DNA of 64,000 bases from Candidatus Falkowbacteria bacterium UBA1359 (lineage in GTDB: Bacteria > Patescibacteriota > Patescibacteriia > Patescibacteriales > Patescibacteriaceae), in contig DBRV01000003.1 of assembly GCA_002306385.1 (NCBI GenBank), positions 861-64,860 on the forward strand, in the 5' to 3' direction. The notes beneath the pieces are model-generated. The model had not been told where the DNA came from. It searched no databases and saw only the letters and a list, made by a program, of their open reading frames with translations. The first letter of the stretch is position 1; every line of letters begins with the position of its first letter. The translations under genes and the position numbers were made by a program. Shown here piece by piece: positions 5,700-35,282 of the stretch.

Positions 5700-7046
5700 C
5701 TATTTGCTTTTTAACTTCCCCCTTAATTGCCAGTTAAGCCAACCAGTAAGCGCTAGGCCTAGCCAAAATAATACTGCTAAATCATTTTTAAAATAAGGCA
5801 CATCTACGAGACCATGGATAAAAGCAGCCAGCCAAGCCCCAAATAATCCCCAATTAAGCCAAGCTAAATTATTTTTAAGATGATAACCACAAAAATTGCG
5901 ACAATTAATAAATAGAGCCTTAAACCATAGCCACATAAAAATTATCATCCCCAGTAGCCCCAATTCACTCCAAAAATTTAAGATAATATTGTGAGGATAG
6001 AGGTATATCTCTACCGGCTGCCAGACTGGTTTTTCTGACTTATCTACTGGCTTAAGCCAAATACCTGTTTCATGATATGGCTTCACACTAGATTGATAAT
6101 TAGCAAGACCAGCCCCAGTAAATAATCGGCCATCTCGTAACATCTCCCAAGTTTCTTGCCATTGGGCTCGACGGATTTGGCCTGATTCATCGGCTAAAGA
6201 AATTTTCCTATAAATTCCAGGGTTCTGTAAAGTAACAATAACCAAAAGAGCAGTCAAAATAATAGACACCACCTTACCACCACGGCTAGAAAGAAAAATC
6301 ATAACTATAATAGCTATAATTAATCCAACTATAGCGCCTTCGGAATGGGCCCAATAAAGAGCCAGCCAACTCAAAATAATACTAGCGGCTAGTAAAATAT
6401 TAGACCAAGTAAATAGTTTAGACCGTTCTTTTCTTAAATAAATAAGGCAACCCAAAAGTGCTAAGCTAACTGGGGCCACAAAGAGACCAATAGCATTGGG
6501 GTAGCCAAAAAAAGAAGTAGCCCGCCGACCAGTAACTGACGCCCACTCAGGATTAAAAATGAGCTGGCCGGTAAAATACTGGTAGCCGGCTAATAAACTA
6601 ATTAAGGTTACACTACCCGCTAGAAACAATAGGGCATTAACAATGTCTTGAGGTTTTTGCCAAACATTAAAGGCAATAACAAAAACTAAAATTGGCTCAA
6701 TGAAATAAGCCTTCCAAATTCCCAGGGCTGGAAGACTATAGCCACTAATAGCAACGGCTATCCAGGCAATAATTAATATGATAATTATCTCCCAAGTAAA
6801 AGGATAAGGATGCCAATTCTTGGGTTTACGGATAATATTCTTCCAGGGCCGAGGCCAAGACTTAATGAGCCAAACCATGGTGGTAATTACAATGAATTCT
6901 TCTAAGACAGTAGAAGGCACAAAACCCACCTTAAAACGCAATAAATAAACAGGTAATAAACCAAATAGCAAAGATAGAGCTAATTTTAAGTTACTCCATG
7001 ACAAAATAAGCCACAAAACACCGACGGCTAAAATTAACCAGCTCAT
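5700..7046 (-). CDS. O-antigen ligase-like (Wzy_C) polytopic membrane protein; possible PglL/TfpO-type O-oligosaccharyltransferase
   Basis: More than 10 predicted TM helices. Motifs HSEGAIVGL, a RRAQWQETWEMLRDGRLFTGAGLANYQ loop and YPHNIILNFWSELGLLGMIIF are typical of Wzy_C. 4-nt overlap with the upstream gene. Confidence 0.6.
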   Translation of the reverse strand: MSWLILAVGVLWLILSWSNLKLALSLLFGLLPVYLLRFKVGFVPSTVLEEFIVITTMVWLIKSWPRPWKNIIRKPKNWHPYPFTWEIIIILIIAWIAVAISGYSLPALGIWKAYFIEPILVFVIAFNVWQKPQDIVNALLFLAGSVTLISLLAGYQYFTGQLIFNPEWASVTGRRATSFFGYPNAIGLFVAPVSLALLGCLIYLRKERSKLFTWSNILLAASIILSWLALYWAHSEGAIVGLIIAIIVMIFLSSRGGKVVSIILTALLVIVTLQNPGIYRKISLADESGQIRRAQWQETWEMLRDGRLFTGAGLANYQSSVKPYHETGIWLKPVDKSEKPVWQPVEIYLYPHNIILNFWSELGLLGMIIFMWLWFKALFINCRNFCGYHLKNNLAWLNWGLFGAWLAAFIHGLVDVPYFKNDLAVLFWLGLALTGWLNWQLRGKLKSK

Positions 7047-7540
7047 ATTTTTAACTGACTTAATGTCTTAAGCTTCCAAATATTATTAACCGTGTCATAA
7101 AGGGCAAAAGAGGCCGGATAATAAACTCCTCCTAGTGTGCCAGGATTCACGAGCCAAGTATTATTATCTAATTCCTCCCATGGTTTATGACTATGTCCGT
7201 AAAACAATACTTCTACTGATCCTTCTCTTAATACTTCTTCCCAATATCTTGGTTCGTGACAAAGACCAATGTGCCGTTTATCTACAATAATTTGGCCATA
7301 CCGACCAACATTATGCCACTGAGGATAACTGGGAATATCACTGGTTAAATAAGTATCACAATTGCCCTGAATAAAATAAAACTCCTTAGGCCAAAGTCTA
7401 GCTAGCTCTAAAAGCGTATCAGTATTAGTTAAGTCTCCCAAAAAAATAGCCGCATCGACTTGATTATTATTCGCCCAATTAAAACAAGTCTCTAAATTGG
7501 GTAAATTATCATGAAGATCACTAAATACTAAGATTGTCAT
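7043..7540 (-). CDS. metallophosphoesterase, YfcE/MJ0936-like
   Basis: Motifs ILVFSDLHDN, FLGDL, GNCD and GHSH. Confidence 0.75.
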   Translation of the reverse strand: MTILVFSDLHDNLPNLETCFNWANNNQVDAAIFLGDLTNTDTLLELARLWPKEFYFIQGNCDTYLTSDIPSYPQWHNVGRYGQIIVDKRHIGLCHEPRYWEEVLREGSVEVLFYGHSHKPWEELDNNTWLVNPGTLGGVYYPASFALYDTVNNIWKLKTLSQLKI

Positions 7541-7541
7541 A

Positions 7542-10500
7542 TTAACCAGCGACTCGCCAAATTTCTTCTAAACTTGTCTCGCCATTAGCTGCTTTAATTA
7601 AACCATCATGGACCATTAGCAGTGAGCCTTGTTTAATGGCCAATTTCTCAAGTTCAGCTTCAGTAGTCAAGGGTTGCTGAATTAATTTTTGCATTTCTGG
7701 AGTAATAATAATAACTTCATAAATACCTAGACGGCCATTATAGCCAATACCACGACACTGAGGACAACCAACTGGTCCATAAAACTGAGGCTTATCCGGC
7801 AACTTTAAGTCTGGCCGCTTACGTAAAAACTCCCAAGCTGGTTCAGCTTGTTCCCAAATATCTGCTGATGGAGTAATGGGTTTTTTACAGTAAGGACACA
7901 AACGTCTAACTAACCGCTGGCCAATAGAGCACTCCAGAGCACTAGCCAGCATCGGCCGGTCAACACCCAGTCCAGCAAAACGAGCAATGGCGCTAGCCGC
8001 ACTATTAGCGTGAATAGTAGATAGAACTAAATGACCAGTTAAACTTGCCTCAATGGCCGTTTTAGCTGTCTCAGGGTCACGAATCTCGCCAATCATAATA
8101 ATATTAGGATTCTGACGTACCAAAGAACGAAGCGCTGCGGCAAAAGTATAGCCACTGGCAGTATCAATTTGAGTTTGCATTACTCCGTCAAGATGATATT
8201 CAATTGGATCTTCAACAGAGATAATTTTAACTTCAGGGGTATTTAATTTTTTAAGTAAAGCATAAAGAGTAGTAGTTTTACCTGCACCGGTAGGACCAGT
8301 AGTAATAATAATACCTTTAGTCTTATGAATAGATTTGTCAATAAGGGATAAAGAGACATCGCGGATGCCTAGATCAGACAAGTCTAAACTAATAGATTGA
8401 CTGGACAGTAAACGGATGACTACAGTTTCTCCATAACCACCAGTAATTAAAGAAACACGACAGTCCATCCGCTCTTGCGGCAAAATCATGCTAAAACGAC
8501 CATCAAAAGTAGGTTGTTTAACGCTTAATGGCAAGCCAATTAAATTTTTAATTTCCCCAATTAATGGAACATAATGCTCCGCACCTAAAGTAACAATATC
8601 ATATAAGATGCCGTCAAGACGATAACGAATTTTTACACCACCCTCAATAGGGTCAATATGAACATCGGCGGCTTTACTGGCAATAGCGCCAGCCATTATG
8701 GCGGTGAGCATCTCACTGGTTGGTTTATTGGCTAATAATGTACCTGCCTGATTTATGTCTTTAGCTATGGCCTCACCAAATTGTAAATCCGCCTCTTTAA
8801 TAGTTAACCCGCGCCCCAGGGTCTGGGAGACAACAATATCATATAAGTCATCAATATAATCCGTCTTGCCCACTACCCTCAAAACTTCTTCCAGTGAAGT
8901 CTGGCCATCAAGCATTTTTAAGATTCCGTCTTGGAGCATAGTAACCATCCCATCTTCAATAGCTTGCCGCATTACCTTAAACGAAGGCGCTCCTTCGTTA
9001 AGCAAAACCTTCATCGGTTCGGTCATGGTAAAAATTTCAAAAATACCAACCCGCCCCTTATAACCAAAACCCGAACAATGCGGGCAGCCTGGCCCTGCTT
9101 TATAGAATACTGGTAATTCTTTAGGCACATCTATATTAGCCTTAGGCGAAATAACTGCTAAAATTTTATTAATTTGCTTCCGTTCTTCTTCGGTTGGTTC
9201 ATGGACCTGTCGACAGTAGGGACATAATTTGCGAACTAAACGCTGGCCAATAACAGCATTAATAGCTGGCGCTAGTTGATAGGGCTGCACCCCCAAATCA
9301 ATTAACCGGGGCAGTACACCAGCAGCATCATTAGTATGAAGAGTAGAAAATACTAGATGACCAGTCAGACTAGCCTGAATGGCAATATTTGCAGTATCAG
9401 CATCACGAATCTCCCCGACCATAATAATATTAGGATCCTGCCGTAAAATTGACTTTAAACCATTAGCAAAAGTGTAGCCTCGGCTTTCATCAACTTGACT
9501 TTGGTTAATTCCCTCCAGCTCATACTCAATGGGGTCCTCCAGGGTAATAATCTTAACGTCCGGAGAGTTTAATTTATTCAGTATAGCATATAGGGTGGTC
9601 GTCTTGCCTGATCCAGTGGGACCAGTAGTTAAAATAAGACCATTAGGTTTAGCCATCTGCTGTTCTAATATGGCCCGGACTGCTGGCCGCATCCCTAAAC
9701 TATCTAGAGGCAAAATAGCTGACTCAGGCCGCAGTAATTTTAAAACAACACTTTCACCATAAGCTGTCGGTAAAAATGAAGCCCTAACAGCTATTTTTTC
9801 TTTAGGGAGAAAAATATCAAAACGGCCATCCTGTGGCTTATTTTCTACATTTATCTTCACCCTGGCCACAACTTTAAGACGGGCTAGGACTCTCTTCCAA
9901 TCAGCTTTAGGAAGAGAGGCTACGTGTTGTAAAACTCCGTCTACTCTCATTCTAATTGCCACCTCATTTTCTTCGGCCTCAATATGGACATCACTACTCT
10001 CTGTTTTTAGAGCGGCAGCAATGATTAAAGTCATAATTTGACTTATATTACCTTCTTTTAACCTCTCATTAAGTGACTTAAAATCGCTCAATTCTTCTTG
10101 ATAGCGCACTAAATCAGCTGGACTAATTTCTACACCCTCTAAACGTTTAATCTTGGGTAGAGTGTCATAAACCCTAAGGCCATACCCTAAACTACGGGGG
10201 GAAATCAAATAAAGCTTGCTTTTAACATGATATTGATTTTTTAATTCTTCTATCTTGCGGGTTAGGCGATCACTTGGTTTAGTTGTGCCAATTCTAATAT
10301 TGTCTCCAACATAGTAAAAACAAATAGCCTGCAAGTTTTCAGCCTCTTCTCGACTTAATAAGACAATTGCCTCAGGACTAATGGGAAAATTAGTCAAATC
10401 AATATATGATAACCCCAATTGAGCTGCTTGAGCCGCTACCTCATTTTCGATGGCCTGTTCGCGTAATTCTTGTTCCCGACGTGCCAATTGCGCAGCGGGG

Positions 10501-10571
10501 GAATTTTTTTCTTGTAGTGATTTACTATTTAATAAATCCTCAATGGATAAATTGTCACTTTCTTCTGTCAT
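7542..10571 (-). CDS. tandem-fused GspE/PilB-type secretion ATPase (two complete ATPase modules in one 1009-aa chain)
   Basis: Module 1 (aa 1-568): GSPII-N-like N-terminus, GPTGSGKTTT (nt 9600-9623), IIMVGEIRD, TGHLVFSTLHTND, CPYC..CPHC. Module 2 (aa 569-1009): GPTGAGKTTT (nt 8274-8297), IIMIGEIRD, TGHLVLSTIHANS, CPYC..CPQC. The junction reads VVG|KTDY at 8868. Confidence 0.85.
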   Translation of the reverse strand: MTEESDNLSIEDLLNSKSLQEKNSPAAQLARREQELREQAIENEVAAQAAQLGLSYIDLTNFPISPEAIVLLSREEAENLQAICFYYVGDNIRIGTTKPSDRLTRKIEELKNQYHVKSKLYLISPRSLGYGLRVYDTLPKIKRLEGVEISPADLVRYQEELSDFKSLNERLKEGNISQIMTLIIAAALKTESSDVHIEAEENEVAIRMRVDGVLQHVASLPKADWKRVLARLKVVARVKINVENKPQDGRFDIFLPKEKIAVRASFLPTAYGESVVLKLLRPESAILPLDSLGMRPAVRAILEQQMAKPNGLILTTGPTGSGKTTTLYAILNKLNSPDVKIITLEDPIEYELEGINQSQVDESRGYTFANGLKSILRQDPNIIMVGEIRDADTANIAIQASLTGHLVFSTLHTNDAAGVLPRLIDLGVQPYQLAPAINAVIGQRLVRKLCPYCRQVHEPTEEERKQINKILAVISPKANIDVPKELPVFYKAGPGCPHCSGFGYKGRVGIFEIFTMTEPMKVLLNEGAPSFKVMRQAIEDGMVTMLQDGILKMLDGQTSLEEVLRVVGKTDYIDDLYDIVVSQTLGRGLTIKEADLQFGEAIAKDINQAGTLLANKPTSEMLTAIMAGAIASKAADVHIDPIEGGVKIRYRLDGILYDIVTLGAEHYVPLIGEIKNLIGLPLSVKQPTFDGRFSMILPQERMDCRVSLITGGYGETVVIRLLSSQSISLDLSDLGIRDVSLSLIDKSIHKTKGIIITTGPTGAGKTTTLYALLKKLNTPEVKIISVEDPIEYHLDGVMQTQIDTASGYTFAAALRSLVRQNPNIIMIGEIRDPETAKTAIEASLTGHLVLSTIHANSAASAIARFAGLGVDRPMLASALECSIGQRLVRRLCPYCKKPITPSADIWEQAEPAWEFLRKRPDLKLPDKPQFYGPVGCPQCRGIGYNGRLGIYEVIIITPEMQKLIQQPLTTEAELEKLAIKQGSLLMVHDGLIKAANGETSLEEIWRVAG

Positions 10572-10575
10572 AGAT

Positions 10576-12282
10576 TTAACCTATTTGGTTTTTACGTTCA
10601 TTAACATAGTTAGTCCAATCCTCAACCATATTTACTAAAAACTTAAACGGAGTCTCAATTATAAAATCTAGAAAAAAAACAAAAACGTTAATTTTACTAA
10701 ATTTTTCACTTAAGTATTTACCAACTGAAAGAACTGGCAAGCTAAAAAAGTCAAAAATAGTGCGCCATAAATTTTCTTTTTCTTCAGTAATTTTAAGCTC
10801 ATTGGTAACCTTCTTGATTCGAATGATAAAAAAACTAACAAATACCAAGAAAAATAAGAAAATTAATATACTAACCCAGGTAAAATGAAATATAGTCAGT
10901 AACCAGATAATAGCCCCAAAGGTTATAATAAAAGCTAATCCATATAAGAAATTAAAAATCTTCCTCAAAACACTAGTTTTTTTCTGAGATACCCTTAAAA
11001 TTATTGGTTCTGACCGCTTATATTCTTCAAAAGACAGTTCATTCACTAGTTTAATAATCTTCTCTGTATTATTTTCGTCAGGTACTTTAGTAACTAAAAC
11101 TGAAAAGAACAACAAAGTTGGAGGAAAAAGAATATTAAATAATAGGGCCAACGGTTCAATCTCTGCGCCAAATATCTTATTAGCTGGAATCTCTAGAAGA
11201 ATAACTAAAACACCTTTAGTAATAAAAATATAGATGATACTACGGACAGCGGCTCGCCATAATAATTTTTTAGCTTTAGTATACTTTGTCTCACAAATTT
11301 TCTTAATTTGTCTAGAAAAGGCCTGGGGATCAGTTTTAAAGCTGGTATAAATCCCTACCGGATCTTGGCGTAATAACTCTAATGAAACAGAAACCGCTAC
11401 GGCATAACGGCTAATAATTTTATCAAGTGGCTCAGCAAGCGGGTGTCTTAATTGGCTATTAACAACATTGCGAATTTTCTCAATATTTTTAGCTACCGTT
11501 GGCCAGAGATTCTCAGGTAAATTTTGCCAATCTGCAATATAGTATTTAAATAAAATAAAAGTCAGCATGTCGTCATCTAACTTAGCAAAATTTCGGTTAA
11601 TGGAAAGATAAATTTGAATTGGCAAATCCTTAGCTAGCTCTTGCTGATCAGCTAATTGAATATTTTTAGATAGATATTCATAGAGATTTTTAATAGCTTG
11701 ATTTAATACAGGGTCTTGGCTAAGACGAGCTTCAATTTCGCTAGCTGCTACTGCCAGTAACCAATCCACTAACTGATTATGCTTAGCTATTTCGTCTCTA
11801 ATCTCCCTTAAATCTCTTTTGGTTAAATCCTTACTTATTTCTTTACTTATACTAGGGGCAGCAATATTTTTAATTACCAAATATTTTTTAATAATAACTG
11901 CTACTTCATCAATAAGGCTCAGGGGTAGTTGATTATTTGGCAAATAACCACCACGAATTAATTCTGTTAATAAATGTTCACTAATTTCTGCCGCTTGGCA
12001 CTCTTTAGTATCTCCTTCAATTACGGTTTTGCGTCGTAAAATTCGTTTAATTGCCTCTTTACGGAGCAAATATTCTTCCTTATATTCCACCACATTACGG
12101 ATTTTTTCATAAAAAAAGGCCATGCGGGAAATAACGCTAGAAACCTTAATTTTAGGCTGATCTGATGTATCTTTGACCTGACTATGTTGAGTACGATAAA
12201 TTACTTGCAACAATTGTTTAGTGTTAACATTGGCGGTTAAAGTAAAAGAGGCCTGTTTATGTAACTTAGGATTGAGTATCAT
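10576..12282 (-). CDS. hypothetical membrane protein (about 340-aa cytoplasmic helical N-domain plus about 5 C-terminal TM helices)
   Basis: ORF-track ORF. Its stop lies 4 nt before the tandem ATPase start. Hydrophobic helices from about aa 345. No T2SSF/PilC motifs recognised. Confidence 0.6.
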   Translation of the reverse strand: MILNPKLHKQASFTLTANVNTKQLLQVIYRTQHSQVKDTSDQPKIKVSSVISRMAFFYEKIRNVVEYKEEYLLRKEAIKRILRRKTVIEGDTKECQAAEISEHLLTELIRGGYLPNNQLPLSLIDEVAVIIKKYLVIKNIAAPSISKEISKDLTKRDLREIRDEIAKHNQLVDWLLAVAASEIEARLSQDPVLNQAIKNLYEYLSKNIQLADQQELAKDLPIQIYLSINRNFAKLDDDMLTFILFKYYIADWQNLPENLWPTVAKNIEKIRNVVNSQLRHPLAEPLDKIISRYAVAVSVSLELLRQDPVGIYTSFKTDPQAFSRQIKKICETKYTKAKKLLWRAAVRSIIYIFITKGVLVILLEIPANKIFGAEIEPLALLFNILFPPTLLFFSVLVTKVPDENNTEKIIKLVNELSFEEYKRSEPIILRVSQKKTSVLRKIFNFLYGLAFIITFGAIIWLLTIFHFTWVSILIFLFFLVFVSFFIIRIKKVTNELKITEEKENLWRTIFDFFSLPVLSVGKYLSEKFSKINVFVFFLDFIIETPFKFLVNMVEDWTNYVNERKNQIG

Positions 12283-26849: not shown

Positions 26850-26889
26850 AGCTCCATCTTAATCTAATTTGTGTCTTAATAACATTTTT

Positions 26890-27279
26890 ATGAAACTATC
26901 TAAAAAAATTCTCTTTATTTGTTTACTCCTGCAATGTTTAATTATTAATCCTTTAACTTTACAGCCAGCTAAAGCTCAGGTTGATTTATGGGGCAACAAT
27001 GTGGGCACTAACGCTTTCAACAATATCGGCTTTAAAGAAAAAGATCCCCGGGAAATAGTGGCCAATATTATTAAAATAGCCTTGGGTTTCTTGGGAACTA
27101 TTGCAGTAGTATTGATTCTCTATGCTGGCTTCTTGTGGATGACAGCGGGTGGTAAACCAGATACGGTCAGCAAAGCCCAAAAAATTATGGCGGCAGCCGT
27201 CATTGGCCTAGTTATCATTCTAGCTTCCTATGGATTGACCTTGTTTATAACCAGATCATTAAGTAATGCCGTTGGATAA
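26890..27279 (+). CDS. TrbC/VirB2-like T4SS-pilin-like small membrane protein, paralogue 1
   Basis: Signal peptide ending AKA-Q, a variable segment, TM1, the FLWMTAGGKPD loop, KAQK, then TM2. Start moved to ATG 26890 (the track begins at GTG 26869). Confidence 0.7.
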   Translation: MKLSKKILFICLLLQCLIINPLTLQPAKAQVDLWGNNVGTNAFNNIGFKEKDPREIVANIIKIALGFLGTIAVVLILYAGFLWMTAGGKPDTVSKAQKIMAAAVIGLVIILASYGLTLFITRSLSNAVG

Positions 27280-27322
27280 AATTTAATAAAAATTAATTCA
27301 TTTATAAGCTAATAACAAAATT

Positions 27323-27712
27323 ATGAAAAAATGGTTAATTGGCCTTATGTCGTTAGTATGGGCCTGCAGCTTTATATCTTTATCCCCTGCGCCAGTTAGA
27401 GCAATTGACGTGTGGGGAACTGGCACCATAGATGCCTATACTAATGATCAAAATGGTGTGGGATTTTCTGAAACCGATCCACGAACAGTAGTAGCTCGAA
27501 TTATAAATATAGCTCTGGGTTTCTTGGGAACTATTGCAGTAGTATTAATTATTGTAGCTGGCTTTCAGTGGATGACAGCGGCTGGTAATGAAGAAAAAAT
27601 TGGTAAAGCCAAAAAATTAATGTCAGCAGCGGTCATTGGTTTGGTTATTGTTCTAATGGCTTTTGCTCTAAGCAGCTTTATTATTAATGCTGTTATTACT
27701 GCCGTTAGCTAA
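27323..27712 (+). CDS. TrbC/VirB2-like pilin-like protein, paralogue 2
   Basis: Signal peptide ending VRA-I, then GFLGTIAVVLI-FQWMTAAGNEEKIGKAKK-TM2. Shares an identical 30-nt block (gggtttcttgggaactattgcagtagtatt) with paralogue 1. Confidence 0.7.
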   Translation: MKKWLIGLMSLVWACSFISLSPAPVRAIDVWGTGTIDAYTNDQNGVGFSETDPRTVVARIINIALGFLGTIAVVLIIVAGFQWMTAAGNEEKIGKAKKLMSAAVIGLVIVLMAFALSSFIINAVITAVS

Positions 27713-27735
27713 TTTTGCTATATTAGCTACAGCTC

Positions 27736-27763
27736 AAATTTGCCAAAATATTTTGGCAAATTT
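27736..27763. repeat. perfect 28-bp palindrome AAATTTGCCAAAAT|ATTTTGGCAAATTT between paralogues 2 and 3 (hairpin, terminator or operator candidate)
   Basis: Read directly. It is followed by T. Confidence 0.8.
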
Positions 27764-27816
27764 TGCTTCAGCCTAATTACTAATTGTGCTGAGACAAAAT
27801 TTTTAAATGATTTCTC

Positions 27817-28212
27817 ATGGGCAAAAAATTAAGTATCATCAAAAATTCTTATAAATTATTCTGGATTTTCATTTTAGGGGTGGCCTTAATTCAAAATATT
27901 ATTATCCCCAATGCTAAGGCAGCCTCAAACTCTACTTTTGGCCTAGAGACAACGGCTAGCCATGCTGGTCTTGTAACGAATACTACCCTCCAGGCCAAGG
28001 TTGGACAAATAGTTGGGTCGGTTTTAGCTTTAATTGGAGTGCTTTTCTTTGTTCTAATGATCTATGGTGGTATCACCTGGATGACGGCTGGTGGTAATGA
28101 AACTACTGTCACCAACGCTAAAAAAACTATTACTGCTGCAATTATTGGACTAGTCATAGTAATTTCAGCCTATGCAATAACTCTTTTCTTGGGAGAAGGA
28201 TTGGCGGGATAA
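27817..28212 (+). CDS. TrbC/VirB2-like pilin-like protein, paralogue 3
   Basis: Signal peptide ending AKA-A, an S/T/N-rich variable segment, then TM1-ITWMTAGGNETTVTNAKK-TM2. Confidence 0.7.
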   Translation: MGKKLSIIKNSYKLFWIFILGVALIQNIIIPNAKAASNSTFGLETTASHAGLVTNTTLQAKVGQIVGSVLALIGVLFFVLMIYGGITWMTAGGNETTVTNAKKTITAAIIGLVIVISAYAITLFLGEGLAG

Positions 28213-28218
28213 TTTATT

Positions 28219-28626
28219 ATGAAAAAAAGAAAAAAATTTTTTGTATTAAGTGTTTTTACCCTCATCGTCTTCACACTCTACGTGCCTTTAAATTGTTATT
28301 CTAAAAATAATACTGCTAATGCTGCAGCAATTGATCTTTTCTCTAATAGTGCCAAGACAACTGCTAGTCAAATGGGTTATGACCCTCAAACTAACCAATT
28401 AACTATATTAAGTCAAATAAGTCTTATTGTTAATATTGTCTTTGGCCTAACTGGTGTCATCTTTTTTATCTTAATAATCTATGGCGGCATTCTGTGGATG
28501 ACTGCTGGCGGTAATGATGAACAAGTTAAAAAAGCACAAAATATTATTCAACGAGCCGCTATTGGACTTTTTATTGTGGTGCTGGCCTATGCTATTACTT
28601 ACTTCATTCTTAAACGAATTTTGTGA
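28219..28626 (+). CDS. TrbC/VirB2-like pilin-like protein, paralogue 4
   Basis: Signal peptide ending ANA-A, a variable segment, then IYGGILWMTAGGNDEQVKKAQNIIQRAAIGLFIVVLAYAITYFI. Confidence 0.7.
   Translation: MKKRKKFFVLSVFTLIVFTLYVPLNCYSKNNTANAAAIDLFSNSAKTTASQMGYDPQTNQLTILSQISLIVNIVFGLTGVIFFILIIYGGILWMTAGGNDEQVKKAQNIIQRAAIGLFIVVLAYAITYFILKRIL
28470..28608 (+). repeat. 139-nt conserved block, copy 1 of 3 (membrane-core coding part of paralogue 4)
   Basis: My hand alignment to 28868-29006 gives about 16 mismatches in 139 nt. Confidence 0.8.
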
Positions 28627-29072
28627 TAAAATCTCATTTCTTTAAAATAATCAATCAACGTGTGGTCATTATTATTATAACAATCATGACCATAATAATG
28701 CCCCTGCACTTTATAACGGCGCAAGGTATAAAGGATGCCTTCTCTGACAACACAATTAAAACGACAGGGAAAGCTGCTGGTTATGACACCACAAAAGACA
28801 GCGTTCTCCCTATAGTCGCTAATATTGTTAATATCGTCTATGGCTTAATTGGTGTTATCTTTTTTGTCTTAATAATCTATGCTGGCATTCTGTGGATGAC
28901 TGCTGGCGGTAATGATACACAAGTTAAAAAAGCACAAAACATTATTCAACGGTCAGCTATTGGACTTCTTATTGTTGTATTGGCCTATGCTATTACATAT
29001 TTTATCTTCAATGTCGTCTTTCGTGTCCATTATGTGCCATCAAACATTAGAGATTATTATATAACTACATAA
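28623..29072 (+). CDS. TrbC/VirB2-like pilin-like protein, paralogue 5
   Basis: The GTG start overlaps the paralogue 4 stop (GTGA). Signal peptide ending TAQ-G. Core IYAGILWMTAGGNDTQVKKAQNIIQRSAIGLLIVVLAYAITYFIF plus a unique C-terminal tail. Confidence 0.65.
   Translation: MIKSHFFKIINQRVVIIIITIMTIIMPLHFITAQGIKDAFSDNTIKTTGKAAGYDTTKDSVLPIVANIVNIVYGLIGVIFFVLIIYAGILWMTAGGNDTQVKKAQNIIQRSAIGLLIVVLAYAITYFIFNVVFRVHYVPSNIRDYYITT
28868..29006 (+). repeat. 139-nt conserved block, copy 2 of 3
   Basis: See copies 1 and 3. A 74-nt core (tatgctggcattctgtggatgac..cattattcaacg) differs from copy 3 at a single position. Confidence 0.8.
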
Positions 29073-29077
29073 GAAAT

Positions 29078-29476
29078 ATGACTAAAAAAATATTTGCTAT
29101 AAGTGCTTGGACTATAATTATAGCCGGACAGCTATTATTTAGTGGCCACACAGTTAAAGCTCAATCAACAAGTTCGGTAATGGAACATCTGAGATTAGTG
29201 GCTGGGGGTAGTTATGACATCAATACCAACGAGGATACACTATTAAACAATATAGCCACTATAATACAAGTAGTCCTTGGCTTGCTGGGTACCATTTTTG
29301 TCATCTTAATGATTTATGCTGGCATTCTGTGGATGACCGCTGGCGGTAATGATACACAAGTTAAAAAAGCACAAAACATTATTCAACGAGCGGTTATTGG
29401 CCTGATTATTGTTGTCCTAGCCTATGCTATTACTTACTTCATATTTAAGGAACTCGGAGGATTAGGGCCAGCCTAA
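29078..29476 (+). CDS. TrbC/VirB2-like pilin-like protein, paralogue 6
   Basis: Signal peptide ending VKA-Q. Core IYAGILWMTAGGNDTQVKKAQNIIQRAVIGLIIVVLAYAITYFIF. Confidence 0.7.
   Translation: MTKKIFAISAWTIIIAGQLLFSGHTVKAQSTSSVMEHLRLVAGGSYDINTNEDTLLNNIATIIQVVLGLLGTIFVILMIYAGILWMTAGGNDTQVKKAQNIIQRAVIGLIIVVLAYAITYFIFKELGGLGPA
29305..29443 (+). repeat. 139-nt conserved block, copy 3 of 3
   Basis: My hand alignment to copy 2 gives about 17 mismatches in 139 nt, clustered outside the 74-nt core. Confidence 0.8.
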
Positions 29477-32558: not shown

Positions 32559-33695
32559 TTATTTACGAAGGGGGACTACAATATATTGATATTCATTACT
32601 ACCGGGTAGAGTTATTTCACATGCACTAATACCATCAATTATTTTGAATAAAACCTGATTAACCGGAAGAATATTAAGGCAATCTAATAAATAGCGATAA
32701 TTTAAGCGGATAGAGTTATCTTTACCATTTATTTGGGCAGCTAATTTTGCCTGATGGCTTCCAATTTGTCCTGACACAGCTTCAATTATTATTTCTTGCT
32801 GATCAGCATTAATAGTCAAATCAACGGCATTAGAATTGGCGCTAAAAATGGAGGCCATTTTTATGGCTCTTAAAAATTCTCCTCGGTCAATAGTTATTTC
32901 AGTTTTAAAATCAGTAGGAATAACTTGAATATAATCAGGATAATGTCCTTCAATTAAACGGGACACTATCTCTATTCCTTGATAAACAAATAAGACTTGA
33001 TTGTCAGCGATATGTATCTGTATTTGATCACTATCTTCAGTTAATTCATCGTTGGAAAAATTAATAATTCTTGCTAATTCCTGCATGGTCTTAAAAGGAA
33101 CAATAATTTTAAGTCCTTCTGAATCTAGAGTGCCAAAATCTAGATGAAAATTAATTTCTTTTTTAGCTAAACGGAAACTATCTGTAGATACTAGATTGAT
33201 ATATTTATTATTAATATCGAATAAAACCCCAGTTAATTCTAGCCGATTATCAGTAGGATTAATGGCAAATAAAAGTTGATTAAGGGCCAACTTTAAATCA
33301 GAAACAGCTAAAGTGAGACTGATTTTTTTATCAATTTGAGGAATTACTGGAAAATCTTCAGCATTTTGTCCTTTTATAATAGTATTGTATTTTTTACAAT
33401 TAATTTTTAAATCTTGTTTATTTATTAATTGAATATCAATTTTTTCGTTAGGCAAAAGAGCAATATAATCACTAAAAATTTTAGCATCTATAGCAATTGC
33501 TCCCTCTTTATTAACTTTACCTCTAATTTGCTTAGTGATGCCTATTTCTAAGTTAGTAGCTGCTAAAGTAATAATGTTATCTTTTGCTTTAATTAAAATA
33601 TTATTTAAAATAGGCATACTAAGATTTTTTTCGGCAATATGGCTAACAATGGTTAATCCTTGATGTAAATTTTTTTGAAGAATAGTTAATTGCAT
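32559..33695 (-). CDS. dnaN: DNA polymerase III beta sliding clamp
   Basis: 378 aa with a three-domain clamp pattern (MQLTILQKNLHQGL..., LEITGVLF, SFRLA), immediately downstream of dnaA. Confidence 0.9.
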   Translation of the reverse strand: MQLTILQKNLHQGLTIVSHIAEKNLSMPILNNILIKAKDNIITLAATNLEIGITKQIRGKVNKEGAIAIDAKIFSDYIALLPNEKIDIQLINKQDLKINCKKYNTIIKGQNAEDFPVIPQIDKKISLTLAVSDLKLALNQLLFAINPTDNRLELTGVLFDINNKYINLVSTDSFRLAKKEINFHLDFGTLDSEGLKIIVPFKTMQELARIINFSNDELTEDSDQIQIHIADNQVLFVYQGIEIVSRLIEGHYPDYIQVIPTDFKTEITIDRGEFLRAIKMASIFSANSNAVDLTINADQQEIIIEAVSGQIGSHQAKLAAQINGKDNSIRLNYRYLLDCLNILPVNQVLFKIIDGISACEITLPGSNEYQYIVVPLRK

Positions 33696-33896
33696 AATAA
33701 TTATTTTAATATAGATTATATTATTAATAATAGCTGGAAAAAAGTTGATAAGTCTTTTTTACGTATAATATTAGTTAAAAATATTAGTATTTGAATTGTG
33801 GATAAAGAGAGAAATTATTGTTAATAACAAGTATATAAATTAATTAAAAATTTTTAGTCAGTGGATAAATAAAAGTTATAAACTATTTAATCACAA
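33696..33896. other. oriC part 1: AT-rich dnaA-dnaN intergenic region with DnaA boxes
   Basis: Perfect TGTGGATAA at 33797-33805. AGTGGATAA at 33860-33868. AGTTGATAA-like at about 33743. A very AT-rich tract at 33696-33790. Confidence 0.6.
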
Positions 33897-35282
33897 TTAA
33901 TACACCGAAGTAATTGATTGAGATATTTGTTCAATATCTTGTCTAATTTTAGAATTATTTTGAATATCTCGCTCAATTTTCGCACAAGCATGCATCGCAG
34001 TAGTATGGTCTCGTCCACCTAATTCTTGACCAATAAAAGGGAAAGAAGCATCCATTCTGGTTCTTAATAAATACATAGCTATTTGTCTGGGGATAACCAA
34101 TTCTTTTTTACGGCTACTGCCGGTAAGTTCAGATAAATTTAGGTTATAAAAATTAGCCACCGCTTCTAATATTTTTTGGGGAGTAGATAGATTATTAGCT
34201 TGAATGGAAATAAAAAAATCTTTTAGTACTTGCTTGGCGATAGATAAATCTGGTTCACAATTATGGAATTGGCAGAAACCAATAATTCTATTAAGTGCTC
34301 CCTCTAGTTCACGAATATTATTACTAATATTCGTGGCAATGTATTGAATAATTGATTGGTCTAAGGGAAAGTTTTTCTGTTGGCATTTAGAATTTAAGAT
34401 AGCCATTCTGGTTTCTAAATCAGGTTGCCCAATATCAGCAACCATACCCCATTCAAAACGCGTAATAAGACGAGCCTCTACAGCTTTCATATTTCTCGGT
34501 GAACGGTCAGAAGTAATAACTATTTGTTTATTGGCTCGGTGGAGCTGATCAAAAGTATAAAAAAATTCTTGTTGGGTACCATCTTTGCCAGCCATAAATT
34601 GTATGTCGTCAACTAGTAATAAGTCTACATTTCTGTAGACACTCTTAAAAGTATTACCCTGTCCATGATAGACGGCATCAACATAATCATTAGTAAATTT
34701 TTCTGAGGTAACATATAGGACTTTTTTACCAGATTTGAGTACTTCATGACCAATAGCTTGGAGAAGGTGAGTTTTACCTAAACCGACGCCACCATAGATA
34801 AAAAGAGGGTTATATGTTTCTCCGGGTTGGCGGATAGCTGCCCATGAAGCGGCATGAGCTAATTCATTATGTTTACCTACGATAAAGGTTTCAAAAGTAT
34901 ATTTAGGATTAAGACCAGCTGCCAGGCAAAGTGATTCATCTTTTGAGGGGTTAGTTTTATAGGCCTTATTCTCTTTTTCTTCAGGAGGGTCAGGAGCAAG
35001 AAAATTGCTTTTAGCTTCCTTGGGCTTAGTTTTGATAATATATTTTATCCCTTTAAGCTTATTACCGGTAACTTTATAAAAAGTTTTAGTAATATCTTTG
35101 GAAAATTTATTTTCAAACCAAGCCTGAGTGAAGGCATTAGGAACACCAATAGTTAAAATGTCATCTTGATAATCAAAAATAAAAGAATTCTTAAACCAGG
35201 TGGTAAAACTGGCTTTAGACATGTTCAGTTCAGCTTCACTAAGGATAGCTTGCCAAATTTGTTCTAGGGAGGAGTGATCCAT
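33897..35282 (-). CDS. dnaA: chromosomal replication initiator DnaA
   Basis: Walker A GGVGLGKTHL, Walker B LLLVDDIQF, and the DNA-binding domain VIPRQIAMYL...GGRDHTT. Confidence 0.97.
   Translation of the reverse strand: MDHSSLEQIWQAILSEAELNMSKASFTTWFKNSFIFDYQDDILTIGVPNAFTQAWFENKFSKDITKTFYKVTGNKLKGIKYIIKTKPKEAKSNFLAPDPPEEKENKAYKTNPSKDESLCLAAGLNPKYTFETFIVGKHNELAHAASWAAIRQPGETYNPLFIYGGVGLGKTHLLQAIGHEVLKSGKKVLYVTSEKFTNDYVDAVYHGQGNTFKSVYRNVDLLLVDDIQFMAGKDGTQQEFFYTFDQLHRANKQIVITSDRSPRNMKAVEARLITRFEWGMVADIGQPDLETRMAILNSKCQQKNFPLDQSIIQYIATNISNNIRELEGALNRIIGFCQFHNCEPDLSIAKQVLKDFFISIQANNLSTPQKILEAVANFYNLNLSELTGSSRKKELVIPRQIAMYLLRTRMDASFPFIGQELGGRDHTTAMHACAKIERDIQNNSKIRQDIEQISQSITSVY

Follow-up and report, generated by a model that had tools for sequence, protein, structure and literature searches.

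The motors of the PilB/GspE/PilT family are thought to be homohexamers that cycle with C2 symmetry (PMC5424180, PMC6858323). PilB builds its ring from six rigid packing units connected through flexible linkers, each unit combining the N2D of one chain with the CTD of its neighbour (PMC5424180); all PilB structures adopt the C2 'CCOCCO' arrangement. The solved PilBs, namely 5TSG, 5TSH and 6OLJ of Geobacter metallireducens, 5ZFR of Geobacter sulfurreducens and 5IT5 and 5OIU of Thermus thermophilus PilF, are homohexamers of single-module chains. Here we describe a protein that departs from the family norm of one module per chain. It is encoded in a stretch of 64,000 nucleotides (nt) from Candidatus Falkowbacteria bacterium UBA1359 (contig DBRV01000003.1, positions 861 to 64,860; the whole stretch is referred to below as the window), where the gene occupies 7542..10571 of the minus strand, stop codon included, and specifies a tandem PilB/GspE-type ATPase of 1009 amino acids (aa). 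The analysis confirms that this covalent, in-frame tandem of two catalytically complete GspE/PilB modules is genuine and conserved.

Each module shares with the solved PilBs the N2D and CTD fold, at about 42% identity, together with the catalytic motifs, the zinc tetracysteine and the pore glutamate, and module 1 also has a probable N1D. What sets the protein apart is that two modules are joined in one chain through a conserved 54-aa junction, that there is one N1D for two modules and that the gene does not stand beside pilT, pilC or pilM. The GspE/EpsE proteins of Vibrio cholerae (1P9R, 4KSR/4KSS) and Vibrio vulnificus (4PHT) are the best sequence matches of module 2 (284 bits) and have the same motifs and zinc subdomain, but here the architecture is tandem and no type II secretion system (T2SS) genes lie nearby; bacteria of the Candidate Phyla Radiation (CPR) have neither an outer membrane nor a secretin. 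Two diverged ATPases of the PilT/PilB family serve one machine in the case of PilB and TfpB of Acinetobacter baylyi and of PilT and PilU of V. cholerae, whereas here the paralogs are covalently joined at a fixed 1:1 ratio and both are of the extension type (PilB-like), neither being PilT-like. T. thermophilus PilF (913 aa) is another long PilB-family protein that arose from internal repetition, but PilF repeats its N-terminal GSPII domains and has one ATPase module, whereas here it is the ATPase module itself that is repeated. Pairs of ATPase modules that are covalently linked or that obligatorily alternate are familiar from hexameric machines of different additional strand catalytic glutamate (ASCE) lineages, as in KaiC, p97/NSF/ClpB, EccC, F1 α3β3 and engineered single-chain ClpX; to our knowledge, the PilT/VirB11-like secretion ATPase superfamily offers no natural tandem example, and the searches made here turned up none.

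Full-text searches of the open-access literature turned up no account of PilB/GspE modules fused or arrayed in tandem, no PDB chain matches the protein in two stretches, and a solved two-module chain was not found; the initial annotation, made from the DNA letters, had likewise known of no description of the architecture. The Foldseek matches to solved PilB and PilF structures cover one module only, with template modelling (TM) scores of ≤0.35 when normalised to the query and up to 0.89 when normalised to the target. Public databases contain hundreds of such proteins with generic labels like 'GspE/PulE family protein', and thus the sequences are known even though no discussion of the architecture was found.

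The open reading frame at 7542..10571 is single and uninterrupted, starts with ATG and remains open past G568, which ends at nt 8868, reading on into KTDYIDDLYD without a stop, exactly as the initial annotation had maintained for an in-frame junction at that nucleotide. When the modules are aligned with each other, residues 134-568 and 576-1009 show 42% identity over 437 columns (E = 9e-123), far beyond chance. Pfam T2SSE (PF00437) matches the 1009-aa protein in two stretches (753.7 bits), and two stretches each are also matched, above their cut-offs, by the NCBIfam models TIGR02533 (GspE, 865 bits) and TIGR02538 (PilB, 836 bits). The motifs quoted for the two halves are all in place: Walker A reads GPTGSGKTTT at residue 317 of module 1 and GPTGAGKTTT at 759 of module 2, the Walker B region reads IIMVGEIRD at 382 and IIMIGEIRD at 824, TGHLV stands at 403 and 845, SLEE at 559 and 1000, and the paired CxxC motifs are CPYC/CPHC at 450/496 and CPYC/CPQC at 892/936. 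One frame, two T2SSE matches and a complete motif inventory agree with the original proposal of a 1009-aa fusion of two complete modules, and each module qualifies as a bona fide PilB/GspE family member on all the sequence criteria that were tested.

Along the chain the proposed domain order would be N1D, N2D1, CTD1, a structured junction of 54 aa, N2D2 and CTD2, and all nucleotide coordinates in this paragraph are on the minus strand. The probable single-copy N1D, a GSPII-N/MshEN-like domain of about residues 30-135 (10167..10484) of the kind that docks to PilM/GspL, has a weak Pfam MshEN match over residues 52-127 (22.5 bits against a cut-off of 23.1); the alignment to the TIGR02538 PilB model begins at residue 18, and AlphaFold2 (AF2) predicts a folded alpha/beta domain with a predicted local distance difference test (pLDDT) score of about 80-90. 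It is followed by the N1D-N2D linker of module 1 (residues 136-180, 10032..10166; mean pairwise identity 0.55), by its N2D (residues 181-295, 9687..10031), in which R250, R263 and K278 map to R257, R271 and R286 of G. metallireducens PilB, and by its CTD (residues 296-568, 8868..9686), with Walker A at 317-324, the Asp box at 345-349, the Walker B GEIRD at 386-390, the His box at 403-414 and the zinc ligands C450, C453, C496 and C499. Beyond the inter-module junction (residues 569-622, 8706..8867) lie the N2D of module 2 (residues 623-737, 8361..8705), whose arginines R692, R705 and R720 are invariant in 120 of 120 family sequences, and its CTD (residues 738-1009, 7545..8360), with Walker A at 759-766, the Asp box at 787-791, Walker B at 828-832, the His box at 845-856 and the zinc ligands C892, C895, C936 and C939. 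The N-terminal extension had been assigned to the first half only. This holds for the N1D proper, the sole part unique to module 1, but not for the segment that follows it, as module 2 is not bare and keeps, in residues 569-622, a 54-aa segment homologous to the N1D-N2D linker at residues 134-180 of module 1.

The junction opens with the motif GK(F/T)DYIDxLYDIV(I/V)SQT(I/L)GRG at residues 569-590, in which Y572, L576, Y577, S582, G586 and G588 are invariant, and it measures 54 aa in 105 of the 120 family sequences and 53-56 aa across all of them. Residues 571-585 are predicted by AF2 to be helical and to lead into a short strand and two further helices, an arrangement that mirrors residues 125-173 of module 1. 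The junction consensus has no conserved in-frame Met that could provide an internal start for module 2. Because both the length and the sequence of the linker are fixed, we infer that the connection is geometrically constrained and is not a floppy tether.

The distribution of the architecture was assessed by a homologue search of a collection of 5.8 billion proteins, from which the best 120 clusters at 90% identity were taken, and by a second, exhaustive search of representatives at 50% identity; the taxonomy of family members was taken from source names. Among the best 120 clusters, 119 proteins measure 992-1024 aa, with 56-91% identity to the query and 95-100% query coverage (≥97% in all but one), and the clusters draw on four independent sources, the NCBI, JGI, ENA and Logan assemblies. 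About 13 further, divergent clusters at 50% identity have the same architecture (978-1018 aa, 39-58% identity). The exact protein of the window is present in public data as a member of a 76-member cluster at 90% identity, and an 81%-identical ortholog occurs on 20 contigs. Named members belong to the Parcubacteria group, Ca. Paceibacterota, Ca. Falkowbacteria, Ca. Moraniibacteriota and the 'Patescibacteria group'. Among the matches listed by a scan of GTDB genomes, most were single-module pilB genes or pilB-pilT pairs, and the fused form was present in L007 alone.

The functional residues of PilB have been defined for the G. metallireducens protein by McCallum et al. 2017 (PMC5424180): T327 and the Walker A lysine bind nucleotide, E357 coordinates magnesium and E395 is catalytic; R257, R271 and R286 sense the gamma-phosphate from the neighbouring packing unit; T411, H413 and H420 couple the units; and E400 is the pore residue that faces PilC. 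These residues were transferred to both modules through PDB alignments and their conservation was scored in 120 family sequences. All 11 are invariant or nearly so in both modules, the catalytic, sensing and pore residues being conserved in 118-120 of the 120 sequences for either module, except for the pore residue of module 1 (112/120). Arginine occupies all six N2D positions in at least 118 sequences, the equivalent of the pore glutamate in module 2, E834, is invariant (120/120), and so are the zinc tetracysteines of both modules (C450/453/496/499 and C892/895/936/939; 120/120). Walker A, the Asp box, the atypical Walker B (GEIRD) and the His box are found in both modules and are invariant in a set of 53 relatives as well as in the 120. 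The full catalytic motif set that the initial annotation had read in each half therefore stands, and the 11 residues and the tetracysteines together rule out that either half is a degenerate pseudo-ATPase domain.

The ratio of nonsynonymous to synonymous substitution (dN/dS) between the window gene and its L092 ortholog is 0.05 for module 1, 0.08 for module 2 and 0.15 for the junction, values that are rough as dS is saturated. By comparison of these sequences both modules are under purifying selection, and both are likely to be active ATPases. The PilT/PilU retraction ATPases measure about 350 aa, carry an AIRNLIRE motif and lack the zinc tetracysteine. Neither module carries PilT-like features: there is no AIRNLIRE-like motif in either, the tetracysteine is present in both, and the PDB matches score about 110-117 bits for PilT vs 284-326 bits for PilB/GspE.

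When 79 modules were compared in a neighbour-joining tree (383 columns, 100 bootstraps), the module 1 and module 2 sequences of the core family resolved as separate clades with 100% bootstrap support each, and in 0 of 100 replicates were they grouped together. As the core-family modules cluster by position and never with each other, the fusion took place before the family radiated. Each of the CPR PilBs with a single module that were examined resembles module 1 more closely than it does module 2, and a stand-alone gene of the module-2 type was not found among the sequences examined. Stand-alone PilB-like ATPases of 431-437 aa that lack an N1D were seen in metagenome-assembled genomes (MAGs) of Nealsonbacteria, UBA6220 and Staskawiczbacteria (L028 9944-11236, L035 9935-11236, L071 2132-3442); these too are nearer module 1.

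Three proteins came into question as natural split forms and were rejected. P0146 (390 aa, module 2 only) is a fragment at a contig edge, P0189, also a fragment, is chimeric and includes the junction, and P0169 (601 aa) is a genuine one-module protein whose gene is not followed by anything module-like. Since the candidates proved to be either fragments or a true single-module protein, there is no unfused pair of module-1 and module-2 genes among them. In P0127 and P0129 the protein's own two modules are more closely related to each other than to any other module (55% and 74% identity, respectively, 100% bootstrap), which reflects either an independent duplication or intragenic gene conversion; the two are inseparable because the main family's PolA-TsaE synteny is found around P0129 as well.

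One relative, P0012 (L003 10001-14383), is 1460 aa long and contains three complete T2SSE modules, which share 47-58% identity with one another. Its modules 2 and 3 are each preceded by a junction motif of the same kind, and both are of the module-2 type. This degree of divergence, the junction motif in front of each added module and the type of modules 2 and 3 argue that P0012 is not a repeat mis-assembly.

How, then, might such chains assemble? Taken as a whole, the explanation that we hold to be slightly better than an even bet is that of a selectively maintained tandem with both modules active, assembling as a single six-module ring of three chains and acting as a pilus-type motor. An old internal duplication or fusion within the Patescibacteria would have given rise to the tandem gene, module 1 having stayed like ordinary single-module CPR PilBs and module 2 being the diverged copy. 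Both modules would bind and hydrolyse ATP, and three chains would close into one ring in which module-1 and module-2 sites alternate. Positions i and i+3 would then always be occupied by unlike modules, so that each C2 step fires one site per class and the C2 cycle takes both classes through every state; a need for both classes in every state would fit the observation that the two catalytic sets, and the pore glutamate in both modules, are fully conserved. In the three-module relative two chains would make up the ring, with like modules opposite each other. The platform that the ring presumably drives would be PilC-like and would belong to a type IV filament or pseudopilus machine whose genes lie elsewhere in the genome.

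With regard to the assembly itself, a single six-module ring from three chains appears to be the most likely form, with a probability of one half or a shade above. The trimer of dimers with two non-equivalent site classes that the initial annotation had put forward is a plausible arrangement. The fixed length and conserved motif of the junction would favour it, as would the existence of the three-module relative, since 2 and 3 both divide 6, and the retention in both modules of the pore residue that faces PilC (the equivalent of E400).

Several observations weigh against this reading. The predicted full chain consists of confident domains (pLDDT 79.7), yet its predicted TM score (pTM) of 0.48 means that the arrangement of the modules cannot be read from it, and a single ring would have three N1Ds instead of six. 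In the tree, the clade uniting module 2 of all main fused lineages has 38% support only, and the deep nodes are weak. P0012 was seen on one 77-kb JGI contig only and is the only three-module protein seen. Two of the scored residues are altered in the window protein: K278 (nt 9738-9740, minus strand) replaces the arginine equivalent to R286 of G. metallireducens PilB in this protein and in its nearest relative, P0001 (118 of 120 sequences have Arg), and D392 (nt 9396-9398, minus strand) replaces the pore glutamate equivalent to E400 in eight sequences, the window protein among them; both changes, R to K and E to D, are conservative and confined to module 1. Lastly, in the 10 contexts surveyed, that of the window included, the ATPase gene is never beside pilC, pilM, pilT or pilins.

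The three chains of a single ring have to be set against six chains forming a stacked double ring, a covalent two-tier motor in which a module-1 hexamer with six N1Ds would face the membrane machinery and a module-2 hexamer would lie beneath it. We regard this as rather unlikely but as a serious rival, the strongest of the alternatives. Module 1 with its N1D amounts to a complete, ordinary PilB and clusters with the single-module PilBs, and module 2 lacks an N1D, as would be expected of a ring away from the PilM/stator layer. Tandem ATPases of other superfamilies, KaiC, p97 and ClpB among them, stack their modules. A double ring of PilT on PilU has moreover been reported in situ from the competence pilus machine of V. 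cholerae (bioRxiv 10.1101/2025.10.14.680967). The short junction of fixed length speaks against stacking, the three-module relative would require three tiers, and the invariance of E834 in module 2 is less expected of a distal ring, though this is weak evidence.

Less probable again, and by our estimate improbable, is that the single ring or any other assembly of these chains drives something other than a pilus, i.e. a process peculiar to the CPR (DNA uptake, the handling of nucleic acids or secretion, for instance) that involves the recurrent phosphoesterase neighbours. Apart from the position of the gene away from type IV pilus (T4P) genes, which was noted above, the case for such a role comes from what is and is not encoded around it. 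Within the 64-kb window there is no PilC/T2SSF, PilM, PilT, prepilin peptidase or class-III pilin, nine further fused loci have no T4P genes within 6-10 kb of the ATPase, and pilins with class-III signal peptides are found neither in the window nor in the fused loci. Directly downstream of the ATPase gene, after a gap of 1 nt, is a gene for a 165-aa phosphoesterase of the Metallophos_2 family by Pfam (7043..7540, minus strand), the only neighbour that recurs across the core family: its orthologs of roughly 165 aa lie 0-2 genes downstream and show 34-57% identity (L092 11029-11523, L001 13601-14098, L090 1744-2220, L004 14434-14919). In other subfamilies the genes PolA (-), TsaE (-) and DHH (+) are directly upstream and RuvB is downstream; the DHH phosphoesterase adjoining the fused ATPase in L003, L086 and L089 has 375-389 aa.

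In the window, however, the DHH/DHHA1 gene and PolA are about 30 kb from the ATPase, for which reason we take the DHH/PolA/RuvB linkage to be housekeeping synteny and not a sign of function. In addition, the modules match bona fide PilB and GspE more closely than anything else, CPR genomes are compact, and the genes for type IVa pili (T4aP) usually lie dispersed among several loci (Denise et al. 2019), so that the orphan position of the gene is compatible with a role in a pilus. As the gene never adjoins pilC, pilM, pilT or pilins, it is homology that points to a pilus-related role.

A division of labour between the modules, in which one of them, most likely the faster-evolving module 2, is mainly regulatory or structural with little turnover, as in F1 α3β3, and three working sites remain, is in our judgement very unlikely. 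Module 2 is somewhat less conserved, with mean pairwise identities for N2D/CTD of 0.64/0.67 vs 0.69/0.74 in module 1, and the R-to-K and E-to-D changes in the window's module 1 can be cited on the same side. Neither module class has lost the tested catalytic residues in the manner of F1 α3β3, as the counts given above for both modules attest, and dN/dS is below 0.1 for both. That such degeneration is possible in the superfamily is illustrated by P0135 (L094 8001-11144, L095 3275-6418), a separate non-CPR fusion of 1047 aa in which T2SSF platform-domain matches (about 118-203) occur together with two T2SSE modules, the first of which has lost the Walker A lysine (GPTGSGTT); its gene adjoins ECF sigma/anti-sigma genes. 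By its sequence P0135 is a fusion of platform domain, pseudo-ATPase and ATPase, unrelated to the window family.

That the tandem is an artefact, two adjacent pilB genes joined by an assembly error or by a frameshift, as could have been revealed by the stop or frameshift at the junction that the initial annotation had kept in mind, is practically excluded, as far as sequences can show, by the recurrence of the architecture in well over 100 independent clusters and assemblies, by the junction motif conserved at fixed length and by purifying selection across the junction. Nothing was found in favour of an artefact; adjacent and overlapping pilB/gspE pairs are present in other phyla. Such pairs were seen in MAGs of Planctomycetales and Verrucomicrobiota (L067 9422-13019, L083 5619-9051), where full-length PilB/GspE genes are arranged head to tail with overlaps of 44 and 14 nt; these unfused pairs might form mixed rings.

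The single six-module ring, if it exists, would provide access to a question that ordinary motors of this family make difficult, as the rotary model is hard to test when six sites are chemically identical. Engineered single-chain ClpX made comparable site-specific mutation possible for the AAA+ unfoldases. With a natural covalent dimer and a trimer in which all sites are intact, every second or every third site could be mutated and the rotary model tested site by site. Such a ring would be the first in the PilT/VirB11-like ATPase superfamily to be covalently linked by nature, and it would come ready-made for dissecting the C2 rotary mechanism. A 2024 review of PilB asks whether paired paralogous extension ATPases form discrete hexamers or hetero-oligomers (PMC11656802), and the tandem ATPase bears on this question in that its 1:1 ratio is fixed by evolution. 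The Patescibacteria lead an epibiotic life in which type IV pili play a central part (PMC9894109, PMC12206443), and for this reason an additional, unrecognised motor that occurs lineage-wide would be relevant to host attachment or DNA uptake. The fullest version of the proposal, to which we would give somewhat less than an even chance, is that of a long-kept natural single-chain PilB heterodimer (in one lineage a heterotrimer) of Parcubacteria-group CPR bacteria, three chains of which (two for the heterotrimer) form a six-module ring with two (or three) permanently non-equivalent, fully active site classes; its gene would stand away from the canonical pilus operons, and the motor may work for a filament or a DNA-uptake apparatus peculiar to the CPR.

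The remaining neighbours of the gene are less widely conserved than the phosphoesterase. Upstream, after a gap of 4 nt, a gene without a Pfam match (10576..12282, minus strand) encodes a 568-aa membrane protein with a multi-pass C-terminal half; it has a 68%-identical ortholog in L092 only, the closest relative, and is probably in the same operon as the ATPase gene. Beyond Metallophos_2 the window encodes a Wzy_C protein and a pseudouridine synthase, and Wzy_C is conserved in the closest relative only. Further away, six tandem genes at 26869-29476 of the plus strand, encoding proteins of 129-149 aa, all match PF18895 'T4SS_pilin'; they probably specify pilins for the conjugation-like type IV secretion system of Patescibacteria (bioRxiv 10.1101/2025.01.22.634366). 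The genes dnaN and dnaA occupy 32559-35282 of the minus strand and the GC skew changes sign around 33-36 kb, the region being probably the chromosomal replication origin.

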